Origin: an uncultured Solibacteraceae bacterium
Lineage (GTDB): Bacteria; Acidobacteriota; Terriglobia; Bryobacterales; Bryobacteraceae
Length of the DNA: 49,714 nt
Assembly: GCA_964390225.1 (NCBI GenBank)
Contig: CAYMHP010000001.1
Location: forward strand, 13,609-63,322
Reading direction: 5' to 3'
The translations under genes were made by a program, and so were the position numbers. Shown here piece by piece: positions 833 through 16,850 of this stretch. The notes beneath the pieces are model-generated. The model had not been told where the DNA came from and searched no databases. It saw only the letters and a program-made list of their open reading frames with translations. Position 1 is the first letter of the stretch. Each line of letters starts with the position of its first letter.

Positions 833-2089
833 ATGCAGCCGCAGGCTCCCGGAATTGTCGGTAAATCTCTATCGCGGCAGAGCTGGGTGGCTTTGCTGGC
901 CTCTTTCACCATCCTGACGGTTGCATTCGCTTTCGGATTATTTTCGCTGCCGGCGTTTTACCCTCCGCTGGTAAAGGCATTCCACTGGAACCGGGCGACG
1001 GTCGCCGCGGGCGGCTCGATTGTCCTCTTTCTGATCGGGGTGCTCTCGCCGCCGGTCGGCTGGCTCGTGGATAAGTACTCGCCGAAAGCGGTGCTGCTGG
1101 GCGGCATGGTCGCGGTGGCTGCCGCGCTCGCGTTGTTGTCCACGACGAAATCGCTCGGACAGTACTATGCATTCTGCGTGTTGCTGGGGATTGGAACGTG
1201 CGCCGTTTCGATCATGCCGAATTCCCTGTTGATCGGGCCCTGGTTTTCCCGCGGCCGCGGCATTGCGGTAGGCTTCATTAACGCGGGCATCGGGTTGGGC
1301 GGGTACATCGCGCCGCGGCTTGCGACCGCGAAGATCGAGGCCGCCGGCTTTGCGTACGCGTTTCTGTTTCTCTCGTTCTGTCTGGCGATCCCATTCGCGC
1401 TAACCCTGATCGGAGTAAGGGGTGGAAGTTCTTCGAGCCGCGCCACGCGGCACTCGGCGTCAGCGCTGCGCGCCCCCACCGCTGGTGAACTCATGCGGAT
1501 GCCGATGTATTGGATCTTTGGAATAGGCCTGTTCTTCTCGGCGCACGCCATGCTTGCCGTGCAGCAGCACCTGATTCTCTACATGACCGGCCAGGGCGTT
1601 TCCGCCGGACGCGCGGCCGCCGCGTTGAGCACCGCTCTCGGGGTCAGCGCGCTGGGCAAGGTCCTCAGCGGCGCGATTGCCGATCGCTTCTCCGCCCGGC
1701 TCGCCATGATGCTGAGCGTGTTATGTGTCGGTTTGGGGATCGCCACGCTACTTTCGATTCCGGCGGGCTCCGACTGGATCTATCTCTTCGAGGCGCTGTT
1801 TGGACTCGGCTACGGCGGCATTTTCAATGCTTCGCCGACCATCATCTTTGAATATTTCGGGACGGAACGCGTCGGTACCTCGCTCGGCCTTCTGTACATC
1901 TTTTTCGGATTAGGGACGGCGAGCGGCGGCCTGCTGGCGGGCTATATATTCGACCAAACGCATCGTTACTCGGTCCCATTTACTGTGGACCTGACGCTTT
2001 CGTGCGTGGCGCTGCTGCTATTATTGGTGAGCGGCCGTCAAACCCGGCGCGTCTCGGTGGAAGCCAAGCCTGCCCTCTCCACCCCATGA
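833..2089 (+). CDS. MFS transporter
   Basis: 418-aa ORF with an ATG start. About 12 hydrophobic segments in a 6+6 arrangement around a central loop. Gly-rich MFS-style loops (GWLVDKYSPK). It sits 25 nt upstream of the LeuD-like operon on the same strand. Confidence 0.8.
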   Translation: MQPQAPGIVGKSLSRQSWVALLASFTILTVAFAFGLFSLPAFYPPLVKAFHWNRATVAAGGSIVLFLIGVLSPPVGWLVDKYSPKAVLLGGMVAVAAALALLSTTKSLGQYYAFCVLLGIGTCAVSIMPNSLLIGPWFSRGRGIAVGFINAGIGLGGYIAPRLATAKIEAAGFAYAFLFLSFCLAIPFALTLIGVRGGSSSSRATRHSASALRAPTAGELMRMPMYWIFGIGLFFSAHAMLAVQQHLILYMTGQGVSAGRAAAALSTALGVSALGKVLSGAIADRFSARLAMMLSVLCVGLGIATLLSIPAGSDWIYLFEALFGLGYGGIFNASPTIIFEYFGTERVGTSLGLLYIFFGLGTASGGLLAGYIFDQTHRYSVPFTVDLTLSCVALLLLLVSGRQTRRVSVEAKPALSTP

Positions 2090-2114: not shown

Positions 2115-2642
2115 ATGTCAGACAATCTGGTGTTTGAAGGAAATTGCTGGAAGTTCGGTCACAATATCCCGACGGACGCGATCACGCCCACCAAGATCAC
2201 GCTCGCCGGATTCAGCGAAATGGCCAGGCACGTTTTGGAAACGCTCAACCCCGATTTCCCCAAGCAGGTGCAGAAGGGCGACATCCTGATCGCGGGCCGC
2301 AATTTCGGCTGTTCTTCGGGACGCGCAATTGCGCCGAAGGCTCTTAAGGCGACCGGGATCAGCGCCATCGTTACGGAATTGTTCGCACGCACGTTCTACC
2401 GCAACGGGCATGAGATCGGTTTGCCGCTGCTCGAAGTCCCGGGGGTGCATGAGCTGGTGGAAACTGGAGATCGCGTTCGGGTCGATATCGGGCGCGGGTT
2501 GGTTGAGAACCTTTCCTCCGGCAAGTCTCTTCGCGGCAACCCGCCACCCCCATTTCTTCTCGAGATGGTGCGCGCCGGCGGCCTCATTCCTTTTTTGAAA
2601 TCCGGATCGCAATTCTTCGCGGAGCACGGCGTACTGCGATGA
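2115..2642 (+). CDS. aconitase-family small subunit (LeuD-like swivel domain), divergent
   Basis: 175 aa. It carries the LeuD hallmark GRNFGCSSGR...ARTFYRNGHEIGLPLLE (compare GRNFGCGSARE...ARTFYRNAINDGLPIVE in the canonical LeuD at 7067..7564). The substrate-specificity loop reads KITLA instead of RYLIY. Its stop overlaps the next start (ATGA). Confidence 0.8.
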   Translation: MSDNLVFEGNCWKFGHNIPTDAITPTKITLAGFSEMARHVLETLNPDFPKQVQKGDILIAGRNFGCSSGRAIAPKALKATGISAIVTELFARTFYRNGHEIGLPLLEVPGVHELVETGDRVRVDIGRGLVENLSSGKSLRGNPPPPFLLEMVRAGGLIPFLKSGSQFFAEHGVLR

Positions 2643-3715
2643 CGCTCTTGCTGAACAACCAGGAGGTCGAGCAGGCGCTCACGCCCGAAGACGCCATCAC
2701 GGCGACGGAGAGCATCTACCGTGAACTGGCCGAGGGCACAGCCGTCAACCGGCCGCGCAGCCAGACCTACATGCCGGTGGAATCGAAGGAGCACCCTGGC
2801 TTCCGCTATCGATTCAAATCGCAGGAAGGCAGCGGCGCTTCCTGCGGTGTTTGGGCGTTGCGCATCACTTCCGATATGGCGGGCTTCTCTTACACCGCCG
2901 GAGTGAAGCGCCGCCGTATTCTGCCGGTCGCCACGGGCAACCGGTATTGCGGGCTCGTGATCCTGTTCGACATCGAAAAAATCGAGCCGATCGCGATCAT
3001 GCCCGATGGCGTCATTCAGAAGGTTCGCGTGGCCGCATTGAGCACCGTCGGGGCCAAGTACCTCGCGCCCGCAAATCCCAGGGTGCTGGGTCTGTTTGGC
3101 AGCGGGTGGCAGGCGAGCGCGCATATCGAGTTTCTGTGCAGCCACTTTCGTTTCGAAAAGGTGAAGGTTTACAGCCCCAACCAGGAGCATTGCCGCGAAT
3201 TTTGCCGCGAGATGACTGCCAAACTCGGACAGTGCATCGAGCCCGTGGACTCACCGGAGAAAGCCGTTCAGGGCAGCGATTTCGTGCAGACCGCCACGGC
3301 CGCATGGGACCCGGTTTTCGACGGGCGTCTCGTGGAAAAGGGAATGTACATCTGCTCCATCGGCGGCGCCGACGCCAGCAACAAACGCCGCGAGATCGAC
3401 GACGAGACCATACGCCGCGCTGACCTGTATGTGGTCCATTCCAAGGAAGTCGCGCGGCTCGACCAATCGCCGGATATCTGGGAAGTCGCACAGAAGGGGA
3501 TCAAGAACTGGGATTCCATTCACGAAGTGCAAGATCTGATTGCGGGCAAGGCGCGGGGCCGCACACACCCGGATCAGATTACGGTGTTCAACAACAATAC
3601 GGGGGCCGGAACGCAATTTGCCGCCGTAGGCGCGGCGGTGCTGCAGCGTGCCCGGTCCATGGGATTAGGCCGGGAACTCCCGACCGAGTGGTTTCTGGAG
3701 GACGTCTCCCCGTAG
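2639..3715 (+). CDS. ornithine cyclodeaminase / mu-crystallin family NAD(P)-dependent enzyme
   Basis: 358 aa. Rossmann motif GLFGSGWQASAHIEF. Overall OCD/mu-crystallin layout. 4-nt overlap with the upstream gene. Confidence 0.8.
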   Translation: MTLLLNNQEVEQALTPEDAITATESIYRELAEGTAVNRPRSQTYMPVESKEHPGFRYRFKSQEGSGASCGVWALRITSDMAGFSYTAGVKRRRILPVATGNRYCGLVILFDIEKIEPIAIMPDGVIQKVRVAALSTVGAKYLAPANPRVLGLFGSGWQASAHIEFLCSHFRFEKVKVYSPNQEHCREFCREMTAKLGQCIEPVDSPEKAVQGSDFVQTATAAWDPVFDGRLVEKGMYICSIGGADASNKRREIDDETIRRADLYVVHSKEVARLDQSPDIWEVAQKGIKNWDSIHEVQDLIAGKARGRTHPDQITVFNNNTGAGTQFAAVGAAVLQRARSMGLGRELPTEWFLEDVSP

Positions 3716-3752: not shown

Positions 3753-4850
3753 ATGCTGAACGAAGATCGCCAGGCGCAGTTAACGAACCTCATGGCCGAG
3801 CGCGGCTGGGACCTGCTGCTTCTCTACGGTCACGGCTGGCGCAAGGATTTCTTTCGCTGCCTGGTCAACCTGAATTTCTCCGGTCCGCACGGGCTGGCCG
3901 CGCTCTTCCGCTCTGGCGAGGTGCACGCGATTGTTTCCGATCCCTGGGATGGCGAATCGCTTTCAGCGGCGCTCAATGGACGAGTCGTCATCGCCCGCAA
4001 TTTCCCCGAATCATTGAGCCGGTTCGTCGCGGGTGCGCGCGTCGGCGAAGTCGCCATCGCTGGCCTCGAGTTGATGGAGGTCCGCTTCGTTCAGGCCGTC
4101 GGAGAGGCGCTGAAAAAGCCGCCGGTCTCGGCGACCGCGGATCTGGAGGAACTGCGGCGGGTGAAGACAGCTCGCGAAATCGCGCTCCTCGAAAGAGCCG
4201 CCGAGCTTTCTGACCGCGGCTACCAGCACTTCGCCGAGGTCATCGAGCAGGGCATGACCGAATACGAGCTGGTGGCGGAGGTAGAGGCGTTTTTAAAGTG
4301 CAGCGGCGCGGAGGACAATTTCATGCTGATCGCCTCCGGCGGCACGGAGGTCACCGGCATGAAGCCGCCCACCGGCCGTAAATTTCGGGAAGGCGATTCG
4401 GTCACCACCGAACTCACTCCGCAGGTGGATGGCTACTACGCCCAGATCTGCCGGACGCTGGTGCTGGGAGAGCCGAACGCGAAGCAGTGCGAGGCTTTCG
4501 GGATTTTTGCAGAAGCACAGAAGGCAGCTGAGGATCTGCTCCGGCCCGGCGTCAACGTCGCCGATGTGGCCCGAGTGCAGAACGATGTCTTCCGCAAGTA
4601 CGGCTACGGCGAATATACAGGCCCGAAATATACACGCGTCCGCGGCCACAATCTCGGCCTGCACCCGGACGAGAATCCTTACGTTCTCGAAGACGTGGAT
4701 TATGTTGTGAAGAGAGACATGGTGCTGATCGCGCATCCGAACACGTACCTGCCGCTGTCGGGTTACATGGTCTTCGGCGACACGTTGCGGGTGACGGCGG
4801 ATGGCTGCGCGCCGCTGAACAAAACGGAAAGGAAACTCTTCCAGAAATGA
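3753..4850 (+). CDS. M24-family (pita-bread fold; creatinase/prolidase/ectoine-hydrolase-like) protein with non-canonical metal site
   Basis: 365 aa. A creatinase_N-like N-domain is followed by the M24 motifs GDSVTTELTP..GYYAQICRT, GHNLGLHPDENP, IAHPNTY and FGDTLRVT. At the five canonical D,D,H,E,E ligand positions it reads E,Q,H,H,G. Confidence 0.75.
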   Translation: MLNEDRQAQLTNLMAERGWDLLLLYGHGWRKDFFRCLVNLNFSGPHGLAALFRSGEVHAIVSDPWDGESLSAALNGRVVIARNFPESLSRFVAGARVGEVAIAGLELMEVRFVQAVGEALKKPPVSATADLEELRRVKTAREIALLERAAELSDRGYQHFAEVIEQGMTEYELVAEVEAFLKCSGAEDNFMLIASGGTEVTGMKPPTGRKFREGDSVTTELTPQVDGYYAQICRTLVLGEPNAKQCEAFGIFAEAQKAAEDLLRPGVNVADVARVQNDVFRKYGYGEYTGPKYTRVRGHNLGLHPDENPYVLEDVDYVVKRDMVLIAHPNTYLPLSGYMVFGDTLRVTADGCAPLNKTERKLFQK

Positions 4851-5779
4851 AACGCGGTTGGATCACGTGGGACAAAGCGGAACTGCATCCATCGGCGTTC
4901 GAATCGCGGCTGGAGATCGTCAGGAACGATCTCGTCGAACGGGACCTGCCCGCCCTCGTCGTTTACACGGATGTCTTTCGCTCGAACGAGGGCCGGTATT
5001 ATTCCAATTTCATGCCGTATTGGAACCGGGCGCTGCTCCTCATTCCGAGGGATGGGGCGCCGGTGCTCCTCTGCGGGCTTTCGCCGCGCGTGTACCCCTG
5101 GATCCGCTCCGTCACCATCCTCGAGGACATCAAGCCTTCTCCGAATCTCGCCCGCCAACTGCTGGAGGTGTGCGCGGCAAAGGGCTGGAACCGCATCGGC
5201 GTAATGGACCTGCTCCAAGTGCCATATGATCTCTACCAGCAGATCGGCGACGGATCTCTCGAATTAGTCGATGTTCCGTTCCGTGCGAAACCGGATACCT
5301 GGGAGATTTTGATGTATAAAGAGGCCGCTAGATTGGCGCGCGAAGGGCTTACGGAAGATCTGGCGGGCGGCATCGGAATGCTCGATCACGAATTCACGGG
5401 CCGCCTGGAGCGGAAATTCCGGAGCGCCGGAGCGGAAGACCTGGTCATCTTGTTAACGAATGGGCAGACGCCGCCGGTTCCTGCTCGCGGGGTAACGCTC
5501 GGCGAAAATTTCTCGGTGGCGCTGGCGCTCGAGTATCGGGGGCACTGGGCGAAAGTGGCGAGATCCGCGAACGGGGACTCGGCCCCGCCGGTTCCCCTCG
5601 AACCGGCGCCGAGGGACGCAAAAGTCTACGTGGAATCGTTATTGGGCTCCTACCCGTACGAACCCGGCGATCAGATGCAGGAGATCGTTGCGATTCGCAC
5701 CGAGGTGGAACGAGGAGGCCGCAGGTTGTTCCACGGAGATACCTACCTGCGCAGGGGTGGGAAGGTGGACCTGCTGTGA
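4847..5779 (+). CDS. divergent creatinase/M24-like protein (probably non-catalytic or non-metallo)
   Basis: 310 aa. The start overlaps the upstream stop (ATGA). The N-terminal half resembles the creatinase/aminopeptidase-P N-domain. The C-terminal half is short and I cannot find the M24 ligand motifs in it. Confidence 0.55.
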   Translation: MKRGWITWDKAELHPSAFESRLEIVRNDLVERDLPALVVYTDVFRSNEGRYYSNFMPYWNRALLLIPRDGAPVLLCGLSPRVYPWIRSVTILEDIKPSPNLARQLLEVCAAKGWNRIGVMDLLQVPYDLYQQIGDGSLELVDVPFRAKPDTWEILMYKEAARLAREGLTEDLAGGIGMLDHEFTGRLERKFRSAGAEDLVILLTNGQTPPVPARGVTLGENFSVALALEYRGHWAKVARSANGDSAPPVPLEPAPRDAKVYVESLLGSYPYEPGDQMQEIVAIRTEVERGGRRLFHGDTYLRRGGKVDLL

Positions 5780-7035
5780 ACATGATCGAGAAAATTCTCG
5801 CCAAGGCAAGCGGGAATCGGGAGGTCCGCCCGGGCGACGTGGTGGTGGCGAAGGTCGATCTGATGGTGATGCACGACCTCAGCTCGAACTTCGTGATGAA
5901 AGTCTTCGAGAACGAAATGGAGGCCGCTACCATCGCGGACCCCTCGCGCATCGCATTCGTCTTCGATCACAACTTCGCGCCCGCCACGCAACAGGCCGCC
6001 GAGGCCTTGGCCGCCGTCCGCAAGTTTGCCGCCAAACACCGCATTCGCAACGTCTTTGATTGCGGCAGCGGGAGCGTGCATCATGTGATTGTCGAAAGCG
6101 GCCTGTGGGCGCCCGGACAAGTGATCATCGGCTGCGATTCCCACACGCCGATTTATGGAGCGCTCGGTGTGTTTGCCACCGGCGTCGGCAACAACTCCAT
6201 GGCCGCACTCGGCTTTCAGCATGGCCTCGGTTGGGTCAAGGTTCCGGAGACCTTTCAGGTTTTCTTCCACGGCGAAACGAAGGGGTGCGTGACCCCGCGG
6301 GACGTCGCTCAGTACCTGGTGGGGCGACTGGGTGAGGATGGCGCGGTCTACAAGGCGATTGAGTATGCCGGCCCGTATATGGAGTCGCTGGCCATCGAGG
6401 ATCGCATGCTCTTTCCCTTAATGTCGATTGATGTCGGCGCGAAATGTGGTTTCGTGAATCCCGACCAAAAGACCCTCGCGTTTGCGAAATCATATTCCAA
6501 GGCAAAGTACTTCGACATGCCGGCGAACGATTCCGGTACGGCATACACGGACGTTCTCGACATCGACGTAAGCAAGCTGGGGCCGCAGGTTGCGTGCCCG
6601 CCGACAGTGGGCAACGTGAAGCCAGTGGAAGAGGTCGCTGGGGTTGCGATCAACATCGCCGAGGTGGGAGGCAGCACCGGAGGGCGTCTCTCCGACATTC
6701 GCCGCCTCGCCGAGTTCTTCCGAAACCGGCGCGTTCATCCCGATGTACGTCTCCAGGTGGTGCCAGCAACACGCGGCATTTTCCGTGAGGCCCTCCGAGA
6801 GGGCCTCTTCGATGTCCTGCACGATGCCGGCGCGAACATCTTCCCGGCGAGCGCGGGCTCCAACCAGGCCTTCAACATGGGCGCCATGGCGGAAGAGGAG
6901 GCGATGATCTCGAACCAGGCGCGCAATTTCCCAGGCCGCAATGGGCATCCGAAAGCGCGGCATTATCTCGGTTCGACGCTCACGGTGGCAGCTTCGGCGC
7001 TGCACGGCCGCATCACCGACCCACGCGCGGTCTAG
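5776..7035 (+). CDS. aconitase-family large subunit (LeuC-like) lacking the three Fe-S cysteine ligands
   Basis: 419 aa, colinear with the LeuC at 7566..8849 (MIEKILAK, GCDSHTPIYGALG, ARNFPGRNG, ITDPR). GSC becomes GGS (Ser300, nt 6673-6675). GCGAC becomes ASAGS (Ser359 and Ser362, nt 6850-6852 and 6859-6861). GTG start overlaps the upstream stop (GTGA). Alternative ATG at 5782. Confidence 0.8.
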   Translation: MNMIEKILAKASGNREVRPGDVVVAKVDLMVMHDLSSNFVMKVFENEMEAATIADPSRIAFVFDHNFAPATQQAAEALAAVRKFAAKHRIRNVFDCGSGSVHHVIVESGLWAPGQVIIGCDSHTPIYGALGVFATGVGNNSMAALGFQHGLGWVKVPETFQVFFHGETKGCVTPRDVAQYLVGRLGEDGAVYKAIEYAGPYMESLAIEDRMLFPLMSIDVGAKCGFVNPDQKTLAFAKSYSKAKYFDMPANDSGTAYTDVLDIDVSKLGPQVACPPTVGNVKPVEEVAGVAINIAEVGGSTGGRLSDIRRLAEFFRNRRVHPDVRLQVVPATRGIFREALREGLFDVLHDAGANIFPASAGSNQAFNMGAMAEEEAMISNQARNFPGRNGHPKARHYLGSTLTVAASALHGRITDPRAV

Positions 7036-7565: not shown

Positions 7566-8825
7566 CTAGTTCTTCAGGAACTCCCTGGGGTCGGTAATCA
7601 CGCCCTCAATCGCCGACGCCGCGAGCGTGGCGGGACTCGAAAGGTAAATTTGCGACTTGTTGCTTCCCATGCGTCCCAGGAAGTTCCGGTTCGCCGTGGA
7701 GAGGCAGACCTCTCCATCGGCCAGCATCCCGCCATCCCCGGCGCACGCGCCGCAGCCGGGGTTGGTGACCATGCCGCCGCTCTCGAGAAGCGTCTGCAGC
7801 ACTCCGGAGTTCATGGCCTGCAGCATGATCTGCTTCGAACCCGGCGTGATGATCAACCGCACGCCGGGATGGACGCGGCGGCCTTTGAGAATCCGGGCGG
7901 CAATCGCCAGGTCCTCGTACTTGGCGTTGGCGCACGAACCGAGGAATGCCTGGTCGATGTGCGTTCCGGCGACCTCGCCGATCGGTTTCGTGTTCTCGAC
8001 TTCATGCGGGCAGGCGACCATCGGCTGCAGTTCCGCCAGGTCCACCTCGATGCGCCGTTCGTAGACGGCGTCGGCATCCGCATAGACGGGGTAATAGGCT
8101 TTCGAGGTCTCCAGCCGCCCCTTCAGATACTCCCCGGTCTTCTCGTCCGGGGGCACAAACACGCACTTAACCCCCATCTCCATCGCGAGATTCGCCATGG
8201 TCATCCGCTCCGAGATACTCAGCGCCGGCATGGCCGAGCCGTAGAACTCCACGGATTTGTAGCCGCATCCATCCGCGCCCAGCTTCCCGATCAAGTGGAG
8301 CATCAGGTCCTTCGAATAAACGCCGTCCCCGAACTGCCCGTTCAATACGATCGCGAAGCTCTCCGGAACCTTCATCCAGAGCTTTCCGGTGATCCACACG
8401 GAGGTCACTTCCGTGTAGCCGATACCCGTGCCCAGCGCGCCGAGGCTGCCGTAGATCGTGCAATGCGAGTCGGTGCCGACGATCAGATCGCCGGGCGCGA
8501 CGTGCCCGTGCTCCATCAGCACCAGGTGCGCAATCCCGGCGTCAACGTCATAAAATTTGCGCACGCCGTGCTGGCGCGCGAAATGGCGCGATGTCTGCTG
8601 ATCGGCCGCGTACTTTTCGGTCTTCGCTGGAGAGATGTGATCCAACACGATGGCGAGACGCTCGGGATCGTACAGCTTGGTTGCGCCCACCCGCGACATC
8701 ACGTTCACGGAACGCCACGTAGCGGTGTGGCTCATGACCAGGTCGGGGTAGGCCTCGACAATTTCTCCCGGCTGCACCCTGTCCCGGCCGGATTTCGCCG
8801 AAAGAATCTTCTCGGCTATGGTCAT
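7566..8825 (-). CDS. leuC: 3-isopropylmalate dehydratase large subunit (archaeal-type LeuC)
   Basis: The track ORF runs to the TTG at 8849. I prefer the ATG at 8825, which gives MTIAEKILSAK, the usual LeuC N-terminus. Motifs GTDSHC, FLGSCANAKYEDL and NPGCGACAGDGG retain all three cluster cysteines. The start is uncertain by 24 nt. Confidence 0.85.
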   Translation of the reverse strand: MTIAEKILSAKSGRDRVQPGEIVEAYPDLVMSHTATWRSVNVMSRVGATKLYDPERLAIVLDHISPAKTEKYAADQQTSRHFARQHGVRKFYDVDAGIAHLVLMEHGHVAPGDLIVGTDSHCTIYGSLGALGTGIGYTEVTSVWITGKLWMKVPESFAIVLNGQFGDGVYSKDLMLHLIGKLGADGCGYKSVEFYGSAMPALSISERMTMANLAMEMGVKCVFVPPDEKTGEYLKGRLETSKAYYPVYADADAVYERRIEVDLAELQPMVACPHEVENTKPIGEVAGTHIDQAFLGSCANAKYEDLAIAARILKGRRVHPGVRLIITPGSKQIMLQAMNSGVLQTLLESGGMVTNPGCGACAGDGGMLADGEVCLSTANRNFLGRMGSNKSQIYLSSPATLAASAIEGVITDPREFLKN

Positions 8826-8923
8826 TCCCACGTGGAAAACCCCTCCCAAATCGCTCTGACGCGACGTATTCAGTGTATCAAGGCCTCTGGATCGTCTATA
8901 TTGAATGGATTACGGAGCCAGCT

Positions 8924-10393
8924 TTGACCCGTTCATCCAGGACGACGCGCCGGCAGATACTCGCGACCACCGTGGCAACGCCTCTGGCCCTCCTGGCCGG
9001 TTCGAAGGAAGCCGCCGCTGCGGGGACCCAGCCCAATATTCTTTTCATCCTCGCCGATGACTTCGGCTATGCCGATCTCTCCTGCTACGGGCGTCCGGAT
9101 TACACGACCCCGAACATTGACCGATTGGCCACCGAGGGAGTGAAGTTCCTGCAGGCCTATGCCAACTCCGCAGTGTGCACGGCGAGCCGCGTGGCGATCA
9201 TCACCGGCCGGTATCAATACCGATTACCGGTTGGCTTGGAAGAGCCTCTTACTGGCCGCAACGTGGGAGTCCCTCCGGAGCATCCCACCATTCCCTCCCT
9301 GCTGAGGAAAGCCGGGTATGGCACCACGCTCATCGGCAAGTGGCATCTCGGTCCGCTTCCCAGCTACGGGCCTCTCAAGAGCGGCTACGACCACTTCTGG
9401 GGGTTTCGCGGAGGCGGCCTCGATTACTTCACGCACAAATCGGGCGGCGTGAACAGCAATACGGACGACCTCTGGGACGACGACGTCAAGATTCACCAGA
9501 CCGGCTATCTCACGGATCTGCTTGCGGAGCAGGCGATCAAGTCGATCAATGGCTACGTGAAAGAGCGCAAGCCGTTTTTTATCAGCCTGCATTTCAACGC
9601 GCCTCACTGGCCGTGGGAGGGCCCGGACGACGAGGCCGTGGCGCAGAAGTACACGAACCTCGGCGCGTTCGACGCCGGCACCATCAAGACGTACGCGCGC
9701 ATGGTCGGCGAGATGGATCTGCAGGTGGGCCGCATTCTGAAGGCGCTCGACTCTGCGGGCGCCGCGCGCAACACCATCGTCGTCTTCACCAGCGACAATG
9801 GCGGCGAGCGGTTCTCCGACACGTGGCCGTTCACCGGGAAGAAGACGGATCTCCTCGAAGGCGGATTGCGCATACCGGCGCTGGTCCGCTGGCCGGGACA
9901 CATCAAGCCGCGCACCACGACCCAGCAGGTCGCCATGGGCATGGACTGGCTGCCAACGCTGGTACCTGCTGCCGGCGCCGAGATCGATTCCGCATATCCG
10001 CCCGACGGCATCAACCTGCTTCCGATGCTCACTGGTAGTGCGCCGCCCACGCCGCGGCGCGTGTACTGGCGCTATCGCCAGAACGCCCAGCAGGCCGTGC
10101 GCGATGGCGACATGAAGTACCTGAAGATCAACGAGAACACGTTTCTGTTCAACGTAGTTGACGATCCGTTGGAGCGCGCCAATTTGAAGGATCGCCAACC
10201 CGACGTCTACAAGCGGCTCGTGGAGGACTATAAAGAATGGGAAGCGGGTATGCTGCCGCTCGATCCCGCTGCCAATACGTACGGTTTCCATCCGGACCAA
10301 CTGGCCGATCACTACAGCCCTCAACCGATTGCGCCGCCGCCGGGCAGAGGAGGGCGGGGGCCAAGGCGCGGGAATCAGTCCCAGGAGCCCTAA
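8924..10393 (+). CDS. Cys-type sulfatase (arylsulfatase family) with Tat-like signal
   Basis: Formylglycine motif CTASR within SAVCTASRVAIITGRY. N-terminal ILFILADDFGYADL. Twin-arginine-like TTRRQILA followed by a hydrophobic stretch. TTG at 8924 has GGAG 7 nt upstream. The track ORF begins at GTG 8873. Confidence 0.85.
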   Translation: MTRSSRTTRRQILATTVATPLALLAGSKEAAAAGTQPNILFILADDFGYADLSCYGRPDYTTPNIDRLATEGVKFLQAYANSAVCTASRVAIITGRYQYRLPVGLEEPLTGRNVGVPPEHPTIPSLLRKAGYGTTLIGKWHLGPLPSYGPLKSGYDHFWGFRGGGLDYFTHKSGGVNSNTDDLWDDDVKIHQTGYLTDLLAEQAIKSINGYVKERKPFFISLHFNAPHWPWEGPDDEAVAQKYTNLGAFDAGTIKTYARMVGEMDLQVGRILKALDSAGAARNTIVVFTSDNGGERFSDTWPFTGKKTDLLEGGLRIPALVRWPGHIKPRTTTQQVAMGMDWLPTLVPAAGAEIDSAYPPDGINLLPMLTGSAPPTPRRVYWRYRQNAQQAVRDGDMKYLKINENTFLFNVVDDPLERANLKDRQPDVYKRLVEDYKEWEAGMLPLDPAANTYGFHPDQLADHYSPQPIAPPPGRGGRGPRRGNQSQEP

Positions 10394-10476
10394 TCGGCCT
10401 CGCTTGACATCCACCCGCGGCCTCCTTAAAATTGGCGCTGACTGGCGCTGTGTGCGTCCGTAAGGAAGAGGCTACG

Positions 10477-10896
10477 ATGAAAACCAAGTTCGCTGTTTCA
10501 GTAGCAGGTCTGTTGCTGCTGGCTGCGGTCCCGATGGCCGCGCACCACTCGTTTGCAGCCGAGTACGACGCCAGCAAGCCGCTTACGCTAACCGGTACGG
10601 TCAGCAAGGTCGAGTTCATGAACCCGCACATCTGGGTTTACCTGGATGCCAAGGATGAGAACGGAAACGTCGTCAAATGGCAGTGCGAAGGCGGCGCGCC
10701 CAATTCTCTCCGGCGCCAGGGCTGGAGCAAGGAGTCTCTCAAAGAGGGCGATCAGGTCACCATCGAAGGGTTCCGAGCCAAAGACGGCACCAACACCTGC
10801 AACTCACGATCGGTGAAACTGCCCGACGGACGCAAGGTCTTCGCCGGCTCGGCCGAAGACGGCGGCCCCAACGCGAAAGGCGCGAAGAAGGAATAG
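10477..10896 (+). CDS. small secreted protein (DUF6152-like)
   Basis: ATG at 10477 preceded by AGGAAGAGG. Signal peptide MKTKFAVSVAGLLLLAAVPMAA followed by the HHSFAAEYD motif. Followed by a classic terminator. Confidence 0.7.
   Translation: MKTKFAVSVAGLLLLAAVPMAAHHSFAAEYDASKPLTLTGTVSKVEFMNPHIWVYLDAKDENGNVVKWQCEGGAPNSLRRQGWSKESLKEGDQVTIEGFRAKDGTNTCNSRSVKLPDGRKVFAGSAEDGGPNAKGAKKE

Positions 10897-15374: not shown

Positions 15375-16850
<1,476 letters not shown>

Follow-up and report, generated by a model that had tools for sequence, protein, structure and literature searches.

We analysed a window of 49,714 nucleotides (the whole stretch of DNA under study) from the assembly of an uncultured Solibacteraceae bacterium (contig CAYMHP010000001.1, positions 13,609 to 63,322 of the forward strand) and concentrated on one gene, whose product we call SerC; it is a large subunit of the aconitase/isopropylmalate isomerase (IPMI)/homoaconitase (HACN) type. 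For non-redox Lewis-acid catalysis by an Fe-S cluster, the aconitase family is the textbook example, and this cluster needs three Cys ligands. According to the alignments, all three ligand cysteines of SerC are replaced, by Ser300, Ala360 and Asn363, in an open reading frame that is otherwise intact. With a probability of roughly 0.55, SerC pairs with a small subunit, LeuDs, as the large subunit of a lyase or hydratase that has the aconitase/IPMI fold, does not depend on Fe-S and would act in an uncharacterised catabolic pathway.

Cluster-ligand columns in SerC

The positions concerned, along with a canonical large subunit from the same window, are as follows.

5776..7035, + strand: SerC, Cys-less aconitase/LeuC/HacA-type large subunit, 419 aa; its GTG start overlaps the stop of the upstream gene M24b
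6673..6675, + strand: codon of Ser300, in the column of ligand Cys1 (aconitase Cys358; canC Cys306), inside the GGSTGG motif, invariant
6850..6876, + strand: remodelled loop S359-A360-G361-S362-N363-Q364-A365-F366-N367, with A360 and N363 at the Cys2 and Cys3 columns
6853-6855 and 6862-6864, + strand: codons of A360 and N363; the latter lies just past the range covered by the initial annotation, by three bases
7566..8849, - strand: canC, canonical LeuC/HacA-type large subunit, 427 aa, with C306, C366 and C369

The initial annotation had described SerC as a LeuC-like large subunit. We found that it is a full-length aconitase-family protein, with a match to PF00330 in Pfam (E=2.8e-70), scores above the cutoffs of two NCBIfam models (NF001614, 421 bits, cutoff 385; TIGR01343, 399.6 bits, cutoff 385.7) and 37% identity to canC over the full length in BLASTP. 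Scores against the LeuC equivalog models were below the cutoffs (TIGR02083, 357.8 bits, cutoff 610.65; TIGR00170, 138 bits, cutoff 560), and the NCBIfam score against the HacA equivalog model was far under its cutoff. The AlphaFold2 model of SerC has pLDDT 92 and pTM 0.91, with low spots at residues 361-370 (pLDDT 64) and 381-390 (pLDDT 77); in Foldseek it matched the Methanocaldococcus jannaschii IPMI and HACN large subunits (4kp1, 4kp2) with a TM-score of 0.93. By sequence and fold, SerC belongs to the aconitase/IPMI/homoaconitase large-subunit family, but the Cys triad of that family is missing. The acid/base and carboxylate-binding residues are there, and the Ser and Arg that a small subunit has to supply would come from LeuDs. 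As a 3-isopropylmalate dehydratase LeuC, SerC does not qualify, given the missed cutoffs and an operon context that is not leuABCD. Since the Cys triad is absent and the LeuC and HacA equivalog cutoffs are missed, the name '3-isopropylmalate dehydratase large subunit' carried by SerC relatives in databases is not to be trusted; such names are probably over-annotations.

For ligand 1 there is no ambiguity: Ser300 stands opposite canC Cys306 in every alignment (BLASTP, HMMER, MAFFT and hhalign). For ligands 2 and 3, the BLASTP alignment of SerC with canC, which has a one-residue gap, places S359 and S362 opposite the cysteines, whereas A360 and N363 occupy these columns in the HMMER alignment to the M. 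jannaschii IPMI and HACN structures (4nqy, 4kp2), in the MAFFT L-INS-i alignment of 138 full-length representatives at 50% identity and in the hhalign profile-profile alignment of the SerC clade with 131 canonical sequences. The consensus of this loop in the clade is F-P-P-S-A-G-S-N-Q, with P358 in 131 of 137 orthologues (the A358 of the window is a minority state). The ungapped alignment with A360 and N363 is favoured because the clade consensus then gives Pro-to-Pro and Gly-to-Gly anchors; the spacing from the upstream AGA block to the ligand has the same length in SerC and canC. We thus rejected S359 and S362 as ligand columns, the one-residue shift that produces them being contradicted by HMMER, MAFFT and hhalign as well as by the clade consensus.

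The initial annotation had claimed a change of all three cysteines to serine. What stands of this claim is the loss of all three cysteines and the serine at position 300; serines at 359 and 362 as ligand replacements do not stand, the alignments giving Ala360 and Asn363 instead. The flanking blocks said to be conserved (VACP, VHP.VRL, RNF.GR.G and ITDPR) are seen in the BLASTP alignment of SerC with canC. Nor does any Cys from elsewhere in the protein fall at the ligand positions in the profile alignments; the complete list of SerC cysteines is C96, C120, C171, C224 and C274. An alternative Cys triad was considered and rejected: C120 is invariant in the SerC clade but Ser in its sister clade (see below), and C224 and C274 are found in canonical members too.

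In the MAFFT alignment, all three columns hold Cys in 132 of the 138 nearest full-length representatives, so that loss of the triad is uncommon; in the present case the whole clade shows it. To describe the clade we used 137 orthologous sequences, assembled from the 120 closest database proteins (≥74% identity; mostly Bryobacteraceae, Terriglobia) and 15 Steroidobacteraceae proteins from genome loci. The states at the three ligand columns were Ser (136/137), Ala (131/137) and Asn (137/137), and no orthologue had Cys at all three. At position 360 (6853-6855), the column of ligand 2, Cys was observed in six orthologues, either a reversion or a single-site remnant.

Conservation across the same orthologues is strict at positions expected to matter for catalysis. 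Asp64-His65, His102, Asp121-Ser122-His123, Arg383 and Arg388 are invariant. Mapped with HMMER against 1aco, the retained residues fall in the columns of pig aconitase His147, Asp165-Ser166-His167, Arg447 and Arg452; Asp64-His65 corresponds to aconitase Asp100-His101, as mapped through the IPMI alignment. In aconitase these columns hold residues for acid/base catalysis and carboxylate binding. Invariance extends to the remodelled loop (Gly361, Asn363, Gln364 and Asn367, with Ser362 in 136/137) as well as to Leu215, Asp219, Gln381 and Ala382. Three of these are altered with respect to aconitase, Asn258 being replaced by Leu215, Glu262 by Asp219 and Asn446 by Ala382; Asn258 and Asn446 are presumably contacts of the cluster in aconitase.

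Pairwise dN/dS (ratio of nonsynonymous to synonymous substitution rates) of SerC against nine orthologues was 0.07-0.16. SerC is under strong purifying selection, and values this low exclude decay. The earlier view that the gene is not decaying is thus borne out by its intact open reading frame, by dN/dS and by conservation in the 137 orthologues. Independent assemblies, among them those of the isolates Peristeroidobacter soli JW-3 and Steroidobacter flavus, have orthologues with the same substitutions.

Sister clade and superclade

Clustering of the library at 50% identity reduces the SerC clade to one full-length representative (P0121), to which P0124 is sister with 50% identity; the next matches are at ≤41%. 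A search with P0124 yielded a large sister clade, 62-72% identical to P0124, from cultured Actinobacteria (Geodermatophilus sabuli, Saccharopolyspora sp. K220, Pseudonocardia, Actinomadura, Amycolatopsis and Homoserinimonas) and also from deltaproteobacterial metagenome-assembled genomes. The ligand columns of the sister clade hold His (120/120), Thr (119/120) and Asn (120/120), and none of these 120 sequences has Cys at all three. A Ser triad, which the initial annotation had thought might define a clade, does not do so; as a clade marker it was rejected in view of the His/Thr/Asn of the sister clade.

What both clades have in common is the motif F-P-P-S-x-G-S-N-Q-A-x-N, together with Leu215, Asp219, GG[S/H]xGG and all catalytic residues; D64-H65, H102, D121-S122-H123, R383 and R388 are invariant in the 137 and 120 sequences together. 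As far as the alignments go, it is the remodelled motif FPPSxGSNQAxN with Leu215, Asp219 and GG[S/H]xGG that defines the superclade, found in four bacterial phyla or more. When 62 sequences of both clades were aligned, none of the Cys positions was invariant and C274 alone came to 90%; this residue is present in canonical members as well, where it is not a ligand. This excludes, for the superclade, a cluster bound through Cys at another site.

The sister clade (P0124, P0271-P0389; e.g. positions 9001-10257 of the Amycolatopsis locus L045) differs at two positions: His300 is invariant and position 381 is mostly His, as compared with Ser300 and Gln381 in the SerC clade. Judging from these residues, His300 and His381 with the invariant Asp219 could make up a 2-His-1-carboxylate metal site, in that clade only.

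Partner subunit, operon and conserved module

The other genes of the operon and its surroundings are listed below.

833..2089, + strand: MFS transporter (PF07690), 418 aa, opening the operon
2115..2642, + strand: LeuDs, LeuD-type small subunit, 175 aa, putative partner of SerC (PF00694, TIGR02087)
2639..3715, + strand: ornithine cyclodeaminase (OCD)/mu-crystallin family protein, 358 aa (PF02423)
3753..4850, + strand: M24a, pita-bread protein (M24, creatinase/prolidase-like), 365 aa (PF00557)
4847..5779, + strand: M24b, degenerate M24/Creatinase_N-like partner, 310 aa
7067..7564, - strand: canD, canonical LeuD-type small subunit, 165 aa, with a GRYLIY loop and a GCGSAREQ motif, partner of canC
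15375..16787, - strand: GCV_T-family (aminomethyltransferase/demethylase-like) protein, 470 aa (PF01571), a weakly linked, possible accessory

SerC is the last gene of the + strand operon MFS-LeuDs-OCD-M24a-M24b-SerC, on which canC and canD (- strand) converge. Start and stop codons overlap by 4 nt at 2639/2642 (LeuDs/OCD), 4847/4850 (M24a/M24b) and 5776/5779 (M24b/SerC), the last of these at the SerC start itself, in agreement with the coupled operon described earlier.

In orthologues of LeuDs the motif NFGCSSGRA is invariant, so that the clade consensus keeps a Ser and an Arg, which we take to be catalytic, as counterparts of aconitase Ser642 and Arg644. LeuDs has another sequence in place of the GRYL specificity loop known from canonical LeuD/HacB; in canD the GRYLIY loop is hydrophobic, as in IPMI small subunits. 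The role of a GRYL-type loop is reportedly known from work on M. jannaschii HacB/LeuD. In Actinobacteria and in locus L042, the small subunit encoded directly after the Cys-less large subunit of the sister clade is 52-55% identical to LeuDs and ∼39% identical to canD. As the sister-clade large subunit is directly followed by a LeuDs-like and not a canD-like small subunit, the sequences indicate that SerC and LeuDs are a co-evolved pair.

The gene order LeuDs-(OCD)-M24a-M24b-SerC is kept in 35 loci of Bryobacteraceae/Terriglobia and Steroidobacteraceae, including those of P. soli JW-3 and S. flavus, and the MFS transporter upstream of LeuDs is conserved in the Bryobacteraceae and Terriglobia loci. 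A canC/canD pair is found within 8 kb of SerC in 20 of the 35 loci, 77-86% identical between Acidobacteriota and Gammaproteobacteria, and in many Steroidobacteraceae loci it follows immediately downstream, with no change of strand. A Terriglobia contig of 3.8 Mb (L041) has eight genes in a row on one strand, canC-canD-MFS-LeuDs-OCD-M24a-M24b-SerC. In five actinobacterial genomes we observed a MarR regulator, a transporter, M24a, M24b, OCD, a canonical pair (D1-C1) and a Cys-less pair (C2-D2), the transporter being an MFS Sugar_tr or NMT1-type ABC system in place of the MFS transporter of the window; as in L041, the canonical large-subunit gene there shares strand and operon with the Cys-less one. 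In L045 and the Geodermatophilus locus L047, C1 is 58-59% identical to canC and has all three cysteines, C2 is 51-53% identical to SerC, M24a 44-46% and OCD 48-51% identical to the window counterparts. The Cys-less pair is thus near or beside a canonical Fe-S pair in most loci examined, and the canonical LeuCD-like pair is part of the module. That canCD might be the housekeeping LeuCD was judged unlikely, given its 77-86% cross-phylum identity and the fact that it travels with the module.

Regulators of the module are of the LysR type in Gammaproteobacteria and of the MarR type in Actinobacteria, and a TctC-type binding protein is encoded in L048. Such regulators and importers suggest catabolism of an imported carboxylate.

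The closest solved structure to the OCD-family protein is a delta1-pyrroline-2-carboxylate reductase (6t3e, 113 bits), with a true ornithine cyclodeaminase (1u7h) at 54 bits; the next matches are an archaeal alanine dehydrogenase, iminosuccinate reductase and ketimine reductases. Of the 36 Bryobacteraceae/Steroidobacteraceae loci analysed, 24 have the gene in the module, as do all complete actinobacterial contexts examined. Imine reductases of the OCD type act after beta-hydroxy amino acid dehydratases, e.g. BhcB with BhcD in the beta-hydroxyaspartate cycle. Another such pair is AcnX, a divergent member of the aconitase superfamily, with LhpI in cis-3-hydroxyproline catabolism (PMC8184944, PMC5144071). 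In Steroidobacter-type clusters lacking OCD we observed a conserved protein of ∼302 aa encoded after canD (L022, 11195-12103; orthologues in eight Steroidobacteraceae loci). It gave no family or structure match, and it may replace the OCD function.

In M24a the five positions that bind the dinuclear metal in Pyrococcus furiosus prolidase (1pv9) hold Glu/Gln/His/His/Gly; we take the prolidase ligands to be D209, D220, H284, E313 and E327. The same E/Q/H/H/G pattern is found in the Amycolatopsis orthologue (L045). With this pattern M24a is probably not a standard dinuclear metallopeptidase. Within M24, the creatinase and ectoine-hydrolase branches, which do not depend on a metal, are C-N hydrolases. 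M24b had no Pfam or NCBIfam match; it weakly matches prolidase 9kw9, and its actinobacterial orthologues show a weak Creatinase_N match. All 36 loci have it, and its place is invariably between M24a and the module gene that follows. Being always adjacent and translationally coupled, M24a and M24b are suggested to form a heterodimer of an atypical enzyme and a pseudo-enzyme.

Homologues of the GCV_T-family protein, 64-65% identical, stand beside the cluster in the Steroidobacter loci L022 (13044-14438), L024, L026 and L028; near the actinobacterial modules examined the gene is absent. Its unusually high identity across phyla hints at an accessory methylation or demethylation step.

Several further genes were seen around the module. 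A thiamine-diphosphate enzyme adjoins it in Geodermatophilus (L047, 10929-12710) and Homoserinimonas (L049, 10835-14073), in the latter with an aldehyde dehydrogenase beside it; this may be a downstream step of 2-oxo acid decarboxylation. In the window a sulfatase-family gene (PF00884, 8873-10393), on the strand opposite to canC, begins 24 bp past the canC start codon; a sulfatase is not conserved beside the module in other loci. Two unrelated genes, for a DUF6152 protein (10432-10896) and a secreted 303-aa protein (1-912, - strand), are located nearby, and paralogous pairs of these recur around the cluster in the Terriglobia loci L027, L030 and L040. Scans of the window for tRNA and Rfam families returned no matches. 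A plasmid search returned only canonical LeuC-like matches, at <40% identity. The names given in cluster records were of no help in assigning a function.

Locus L044 (158-3831) carries an independent tandem, in which a canonical LeuCD-like pair is followed by a second pair. The large subunit of the latter, P0262, has Cys/Val/Glu at the ligand columns and has lost the Asp-Ser-His motif. This tandem indicates that degenerate aconitase-family paralogues arise repeatedly beside canonical ones.

Function, rival explanations and known systems

An Fe-S-independent role, one of the options raised by the initial annotation, is the natural reading of the sequence evidence, with the ligand loss real, the open reading frame intact and selection strong. 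If SerC and LeuDs form a lyase or hydratase, it would probably be insensitive to oxygen and would act on a malate- or aspartate-like dicarboxylate. As in the aconitase mechanism, a Ser alkoxide would serve as base and His/Asp as acid, and the polar loop (Ser359, Ser362, Asn363, Gln364 and Asn367, with Asp219 and Ser/His300) would bind and activate the leaving group in place of the unique Fe. SerC-LeuDs would then be responsible for eliminating OH or an amine, as one half-reaction in a pathway for a nitrogen-containing carboxylate, and the other hydration or isomerisation would fall to the Fe-S paralogue canCD. Lysine biosynthesis is a known case of a pathway with two aconitase-type enzymes: dehydration and rehydration are split between aconitase and homoaconitase. 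One could speculate that a better leaving group, such as an amine, is eliminated into an enlarged pocket and that hydration of the resulting cis-enoate is left to the Fe-S paralogue.

Several points weigh against an Fe-S-independent lyase or hydratase. In every characterised member of the family, the cluster Fe is regarded as essential for hydroxyl activation. The module context does not name the substrate. The remodelled loop, at residues 361-370, is of low confidence in the model (pLDDT 64). Degenerate and presumably inactive paralogues do occur in such clusters (M24b; P0262 in L044). In the sister clade, His300, His381 and Asp219 could together bind a single metal ion, in which case the enzyme would not be cofactor-free. 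Finally, the cluster and substrate sites were described as completely conserved in the other aconitase enzymes in a paper on AcnX (PMC8184944).

A more specific version of the same proposal can be put forward only tentatively. The superclade might be a cofactor-free lyase of the aconitase fold, in which the cavity vacated by the cluster is rebuilt (SxGSNQAxN, Leu215, Asp219 and Ser/His300) so as to bind and activate the leaving group directly. This leaving group is possibly a bulky amine and not a hydroxyl (C-N lyase), and the enzyme would work in tandem with the Fe-S paralogue, the imine reductase and the metal-poor M24 heterodimer, in a widespread and hitherto unrecognised pathway for the catabolism of a nitrogen-containing dicarboxylate.

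We think it unlikely that SerC and LeuDs are a pseudo-enzyme or binding subunit, which would hold a substrate or intermediate of the pathway or serve the Fe-S LeuCD-like pair or the M24 pair as a scaffold or regulator. In favour of this reading, the cluster that is regarded as essential in characterised members has been lost; the module already has one degenerate paralogue, M24b; the tandem in L044 has a Cys-poor paralogue that also lacks the Asp-Ser-His motif; and the Cys-less pair stands beside or near a canonical pair in most loci examined. However, every catalytic residue outside the cluster, including the Ser and Arg of the small subunit, is invariant in >250 sequences from four phyla, which binding alone would rarely need. 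Also, the replaced positions are invariant and polar, which speaks for a new functional site and not for relaxed selection, and dN/dS is as low as in enzymes. The invariant catalytic residues in both subunits would favour an active enzyme over a pseudo-enzyme.

An active enzyme with a different inorganic cofactor seems to us doubtful too. The candidates are a single metal ion (Fe2+, Mn2+, Mg2+ or Zn2+) and a cluster with ligands other than Cys, in either case bound through Asp219, Asn363/Gln364 and Ser/His300, to which the sister clade would add His381. In that clade, the invariant His at ligand 1, the mostly conserved His381 and the invariant Asp219 resemble a 2-His-1-carboxylate set; M24a in the same module has the unusual E/Q/H/H/G set; and a Lewis acid would take care of leaving-group activation. 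Still, in the same module the SerC clade has Ser300 and Gln381, which are poor metal ligands, and a conserved Cys set is lacking. With Ser or His at ligand 1 and Gln or His at 381 in the same module, hydrogen bonding fits better than obligate metal ligation.

That SerC is a decaying pseudogene, or an artefact of sequencing or alignment, is excluded: nothing but the absent ligand cysteines speaks for it, and against it are the intact open reading frame, full-length alignment to solved structures, the high-confidence predicted fold, dN/dS of 0.07-0.16 and substitutions repeated in 137 orthologues.

Among known systems, the archaeal-type isopropylmalate/citramalate isomerase and homoaconitase large subunits (M. 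jannaschii MJ0499 and MJ1003; 4kp1, 4nqy, 4kp2), which have LeuD/HacB small subunits, are 34-36% identical to SerC and share with it the length, the two-subunit organisation, the Asp-His, His, Asp-Ser-His and Arg...Arg residues and the small-subunit Ser/Arg. They differ in that SerC has Ser/Ala/Asn for the three cluster cysteines, Leu and Ala in the Asn258 and Asn446 columns and Asp for Glu262; the loop SxGSNQAxN is invariant, the GRYL loop is replaced and the context is not amino-acid biosynthesis. Mitochondrial aconitase (7acn, 1aco) has homologous domains 1-3 (TM-score 0.86), and its H147, D165, S166, H167, R447 and R452 columns are conserved in SerC; SerC lacks the cluster ligands and has a separate small subunit where aconitase has a fused domain 4. 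IRP2 is likewise an aconitase-family protein functioning without a cluster, but it is a eukaryotic RNA-binding regulator (TM-score 0.45 to SerC), whereas SerC keeps the catalytic residues, a small subunit and a catabolic operon.

The PrpD/MmgE 2-methylcitrate dehydratase is a cofactor-independent dehydratase of an unrelated fold acting on a citrate-like substrate, so the chemistry needs no Fe-S cluster. A putative PrpD-like fragment, read from a sequence motif, is located upstream of the sister-clade gene in L042. A biochemical precedent for hydrating cis-dicarboxylates without a cluster may be the maleate hydratase of Pseudomonas pseudoalcaligenes, reportedly a two-subunit LeuCD-like enzyme (with larger subunits, of ∼57 and ∼24 kDa) that is colourless and needs no cofactor; HbzIJ of P. 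alcaligenes, said to be encoded in a different context, that of the gentisate pathway, is reportedly LeuCD-like too. Literature text searches for this precedent gave nothing usable. If HbzI lacks the cysteines, the biochemical novelty of SerC is smaller. In the literature searches we found no report of a cluster-less LeuC/aconitase-type clade or of this module.

AcnX resembles SerC as a divergent dehydratase of the aconitase superfamily with non-canonical cofactor sites, found with an OCD-family delta1-pyrroline-2-carboxylate reductase. SerC is not an AcnX, which forms a distant branch: the TM-score to 7cnq is 0.55 and the identity 14%, and there was no AcnX match in Pfam. AcnX binds [2Fe-2S] or [3Fe-4S]/[4Fe-4S] through three Cys, whereas SerC has no conserved Cys set, and in the non-AcnX members of the aconitase family three Cys ligands are treated as universal (PMC8184944).

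The superclade exposes a systematic mis-annotation, as its proteins are named 3-isopropylmalate dehydratase. The seven-gene uncharacterised catabolic module is present in cultured Amycolatopsis, Pseudonocardia, Saccharopolyspora, Geodermatophilus, Steroidobacter and Peristeroidobacter and is thus directly testable. A clade that has lost the cluster while keeping the catalytic residues would show that the aconitase fold works, or is repurposed, without a cluster, with implications for oxygen and iron independence and for the evolution of Fe-S enzymes.

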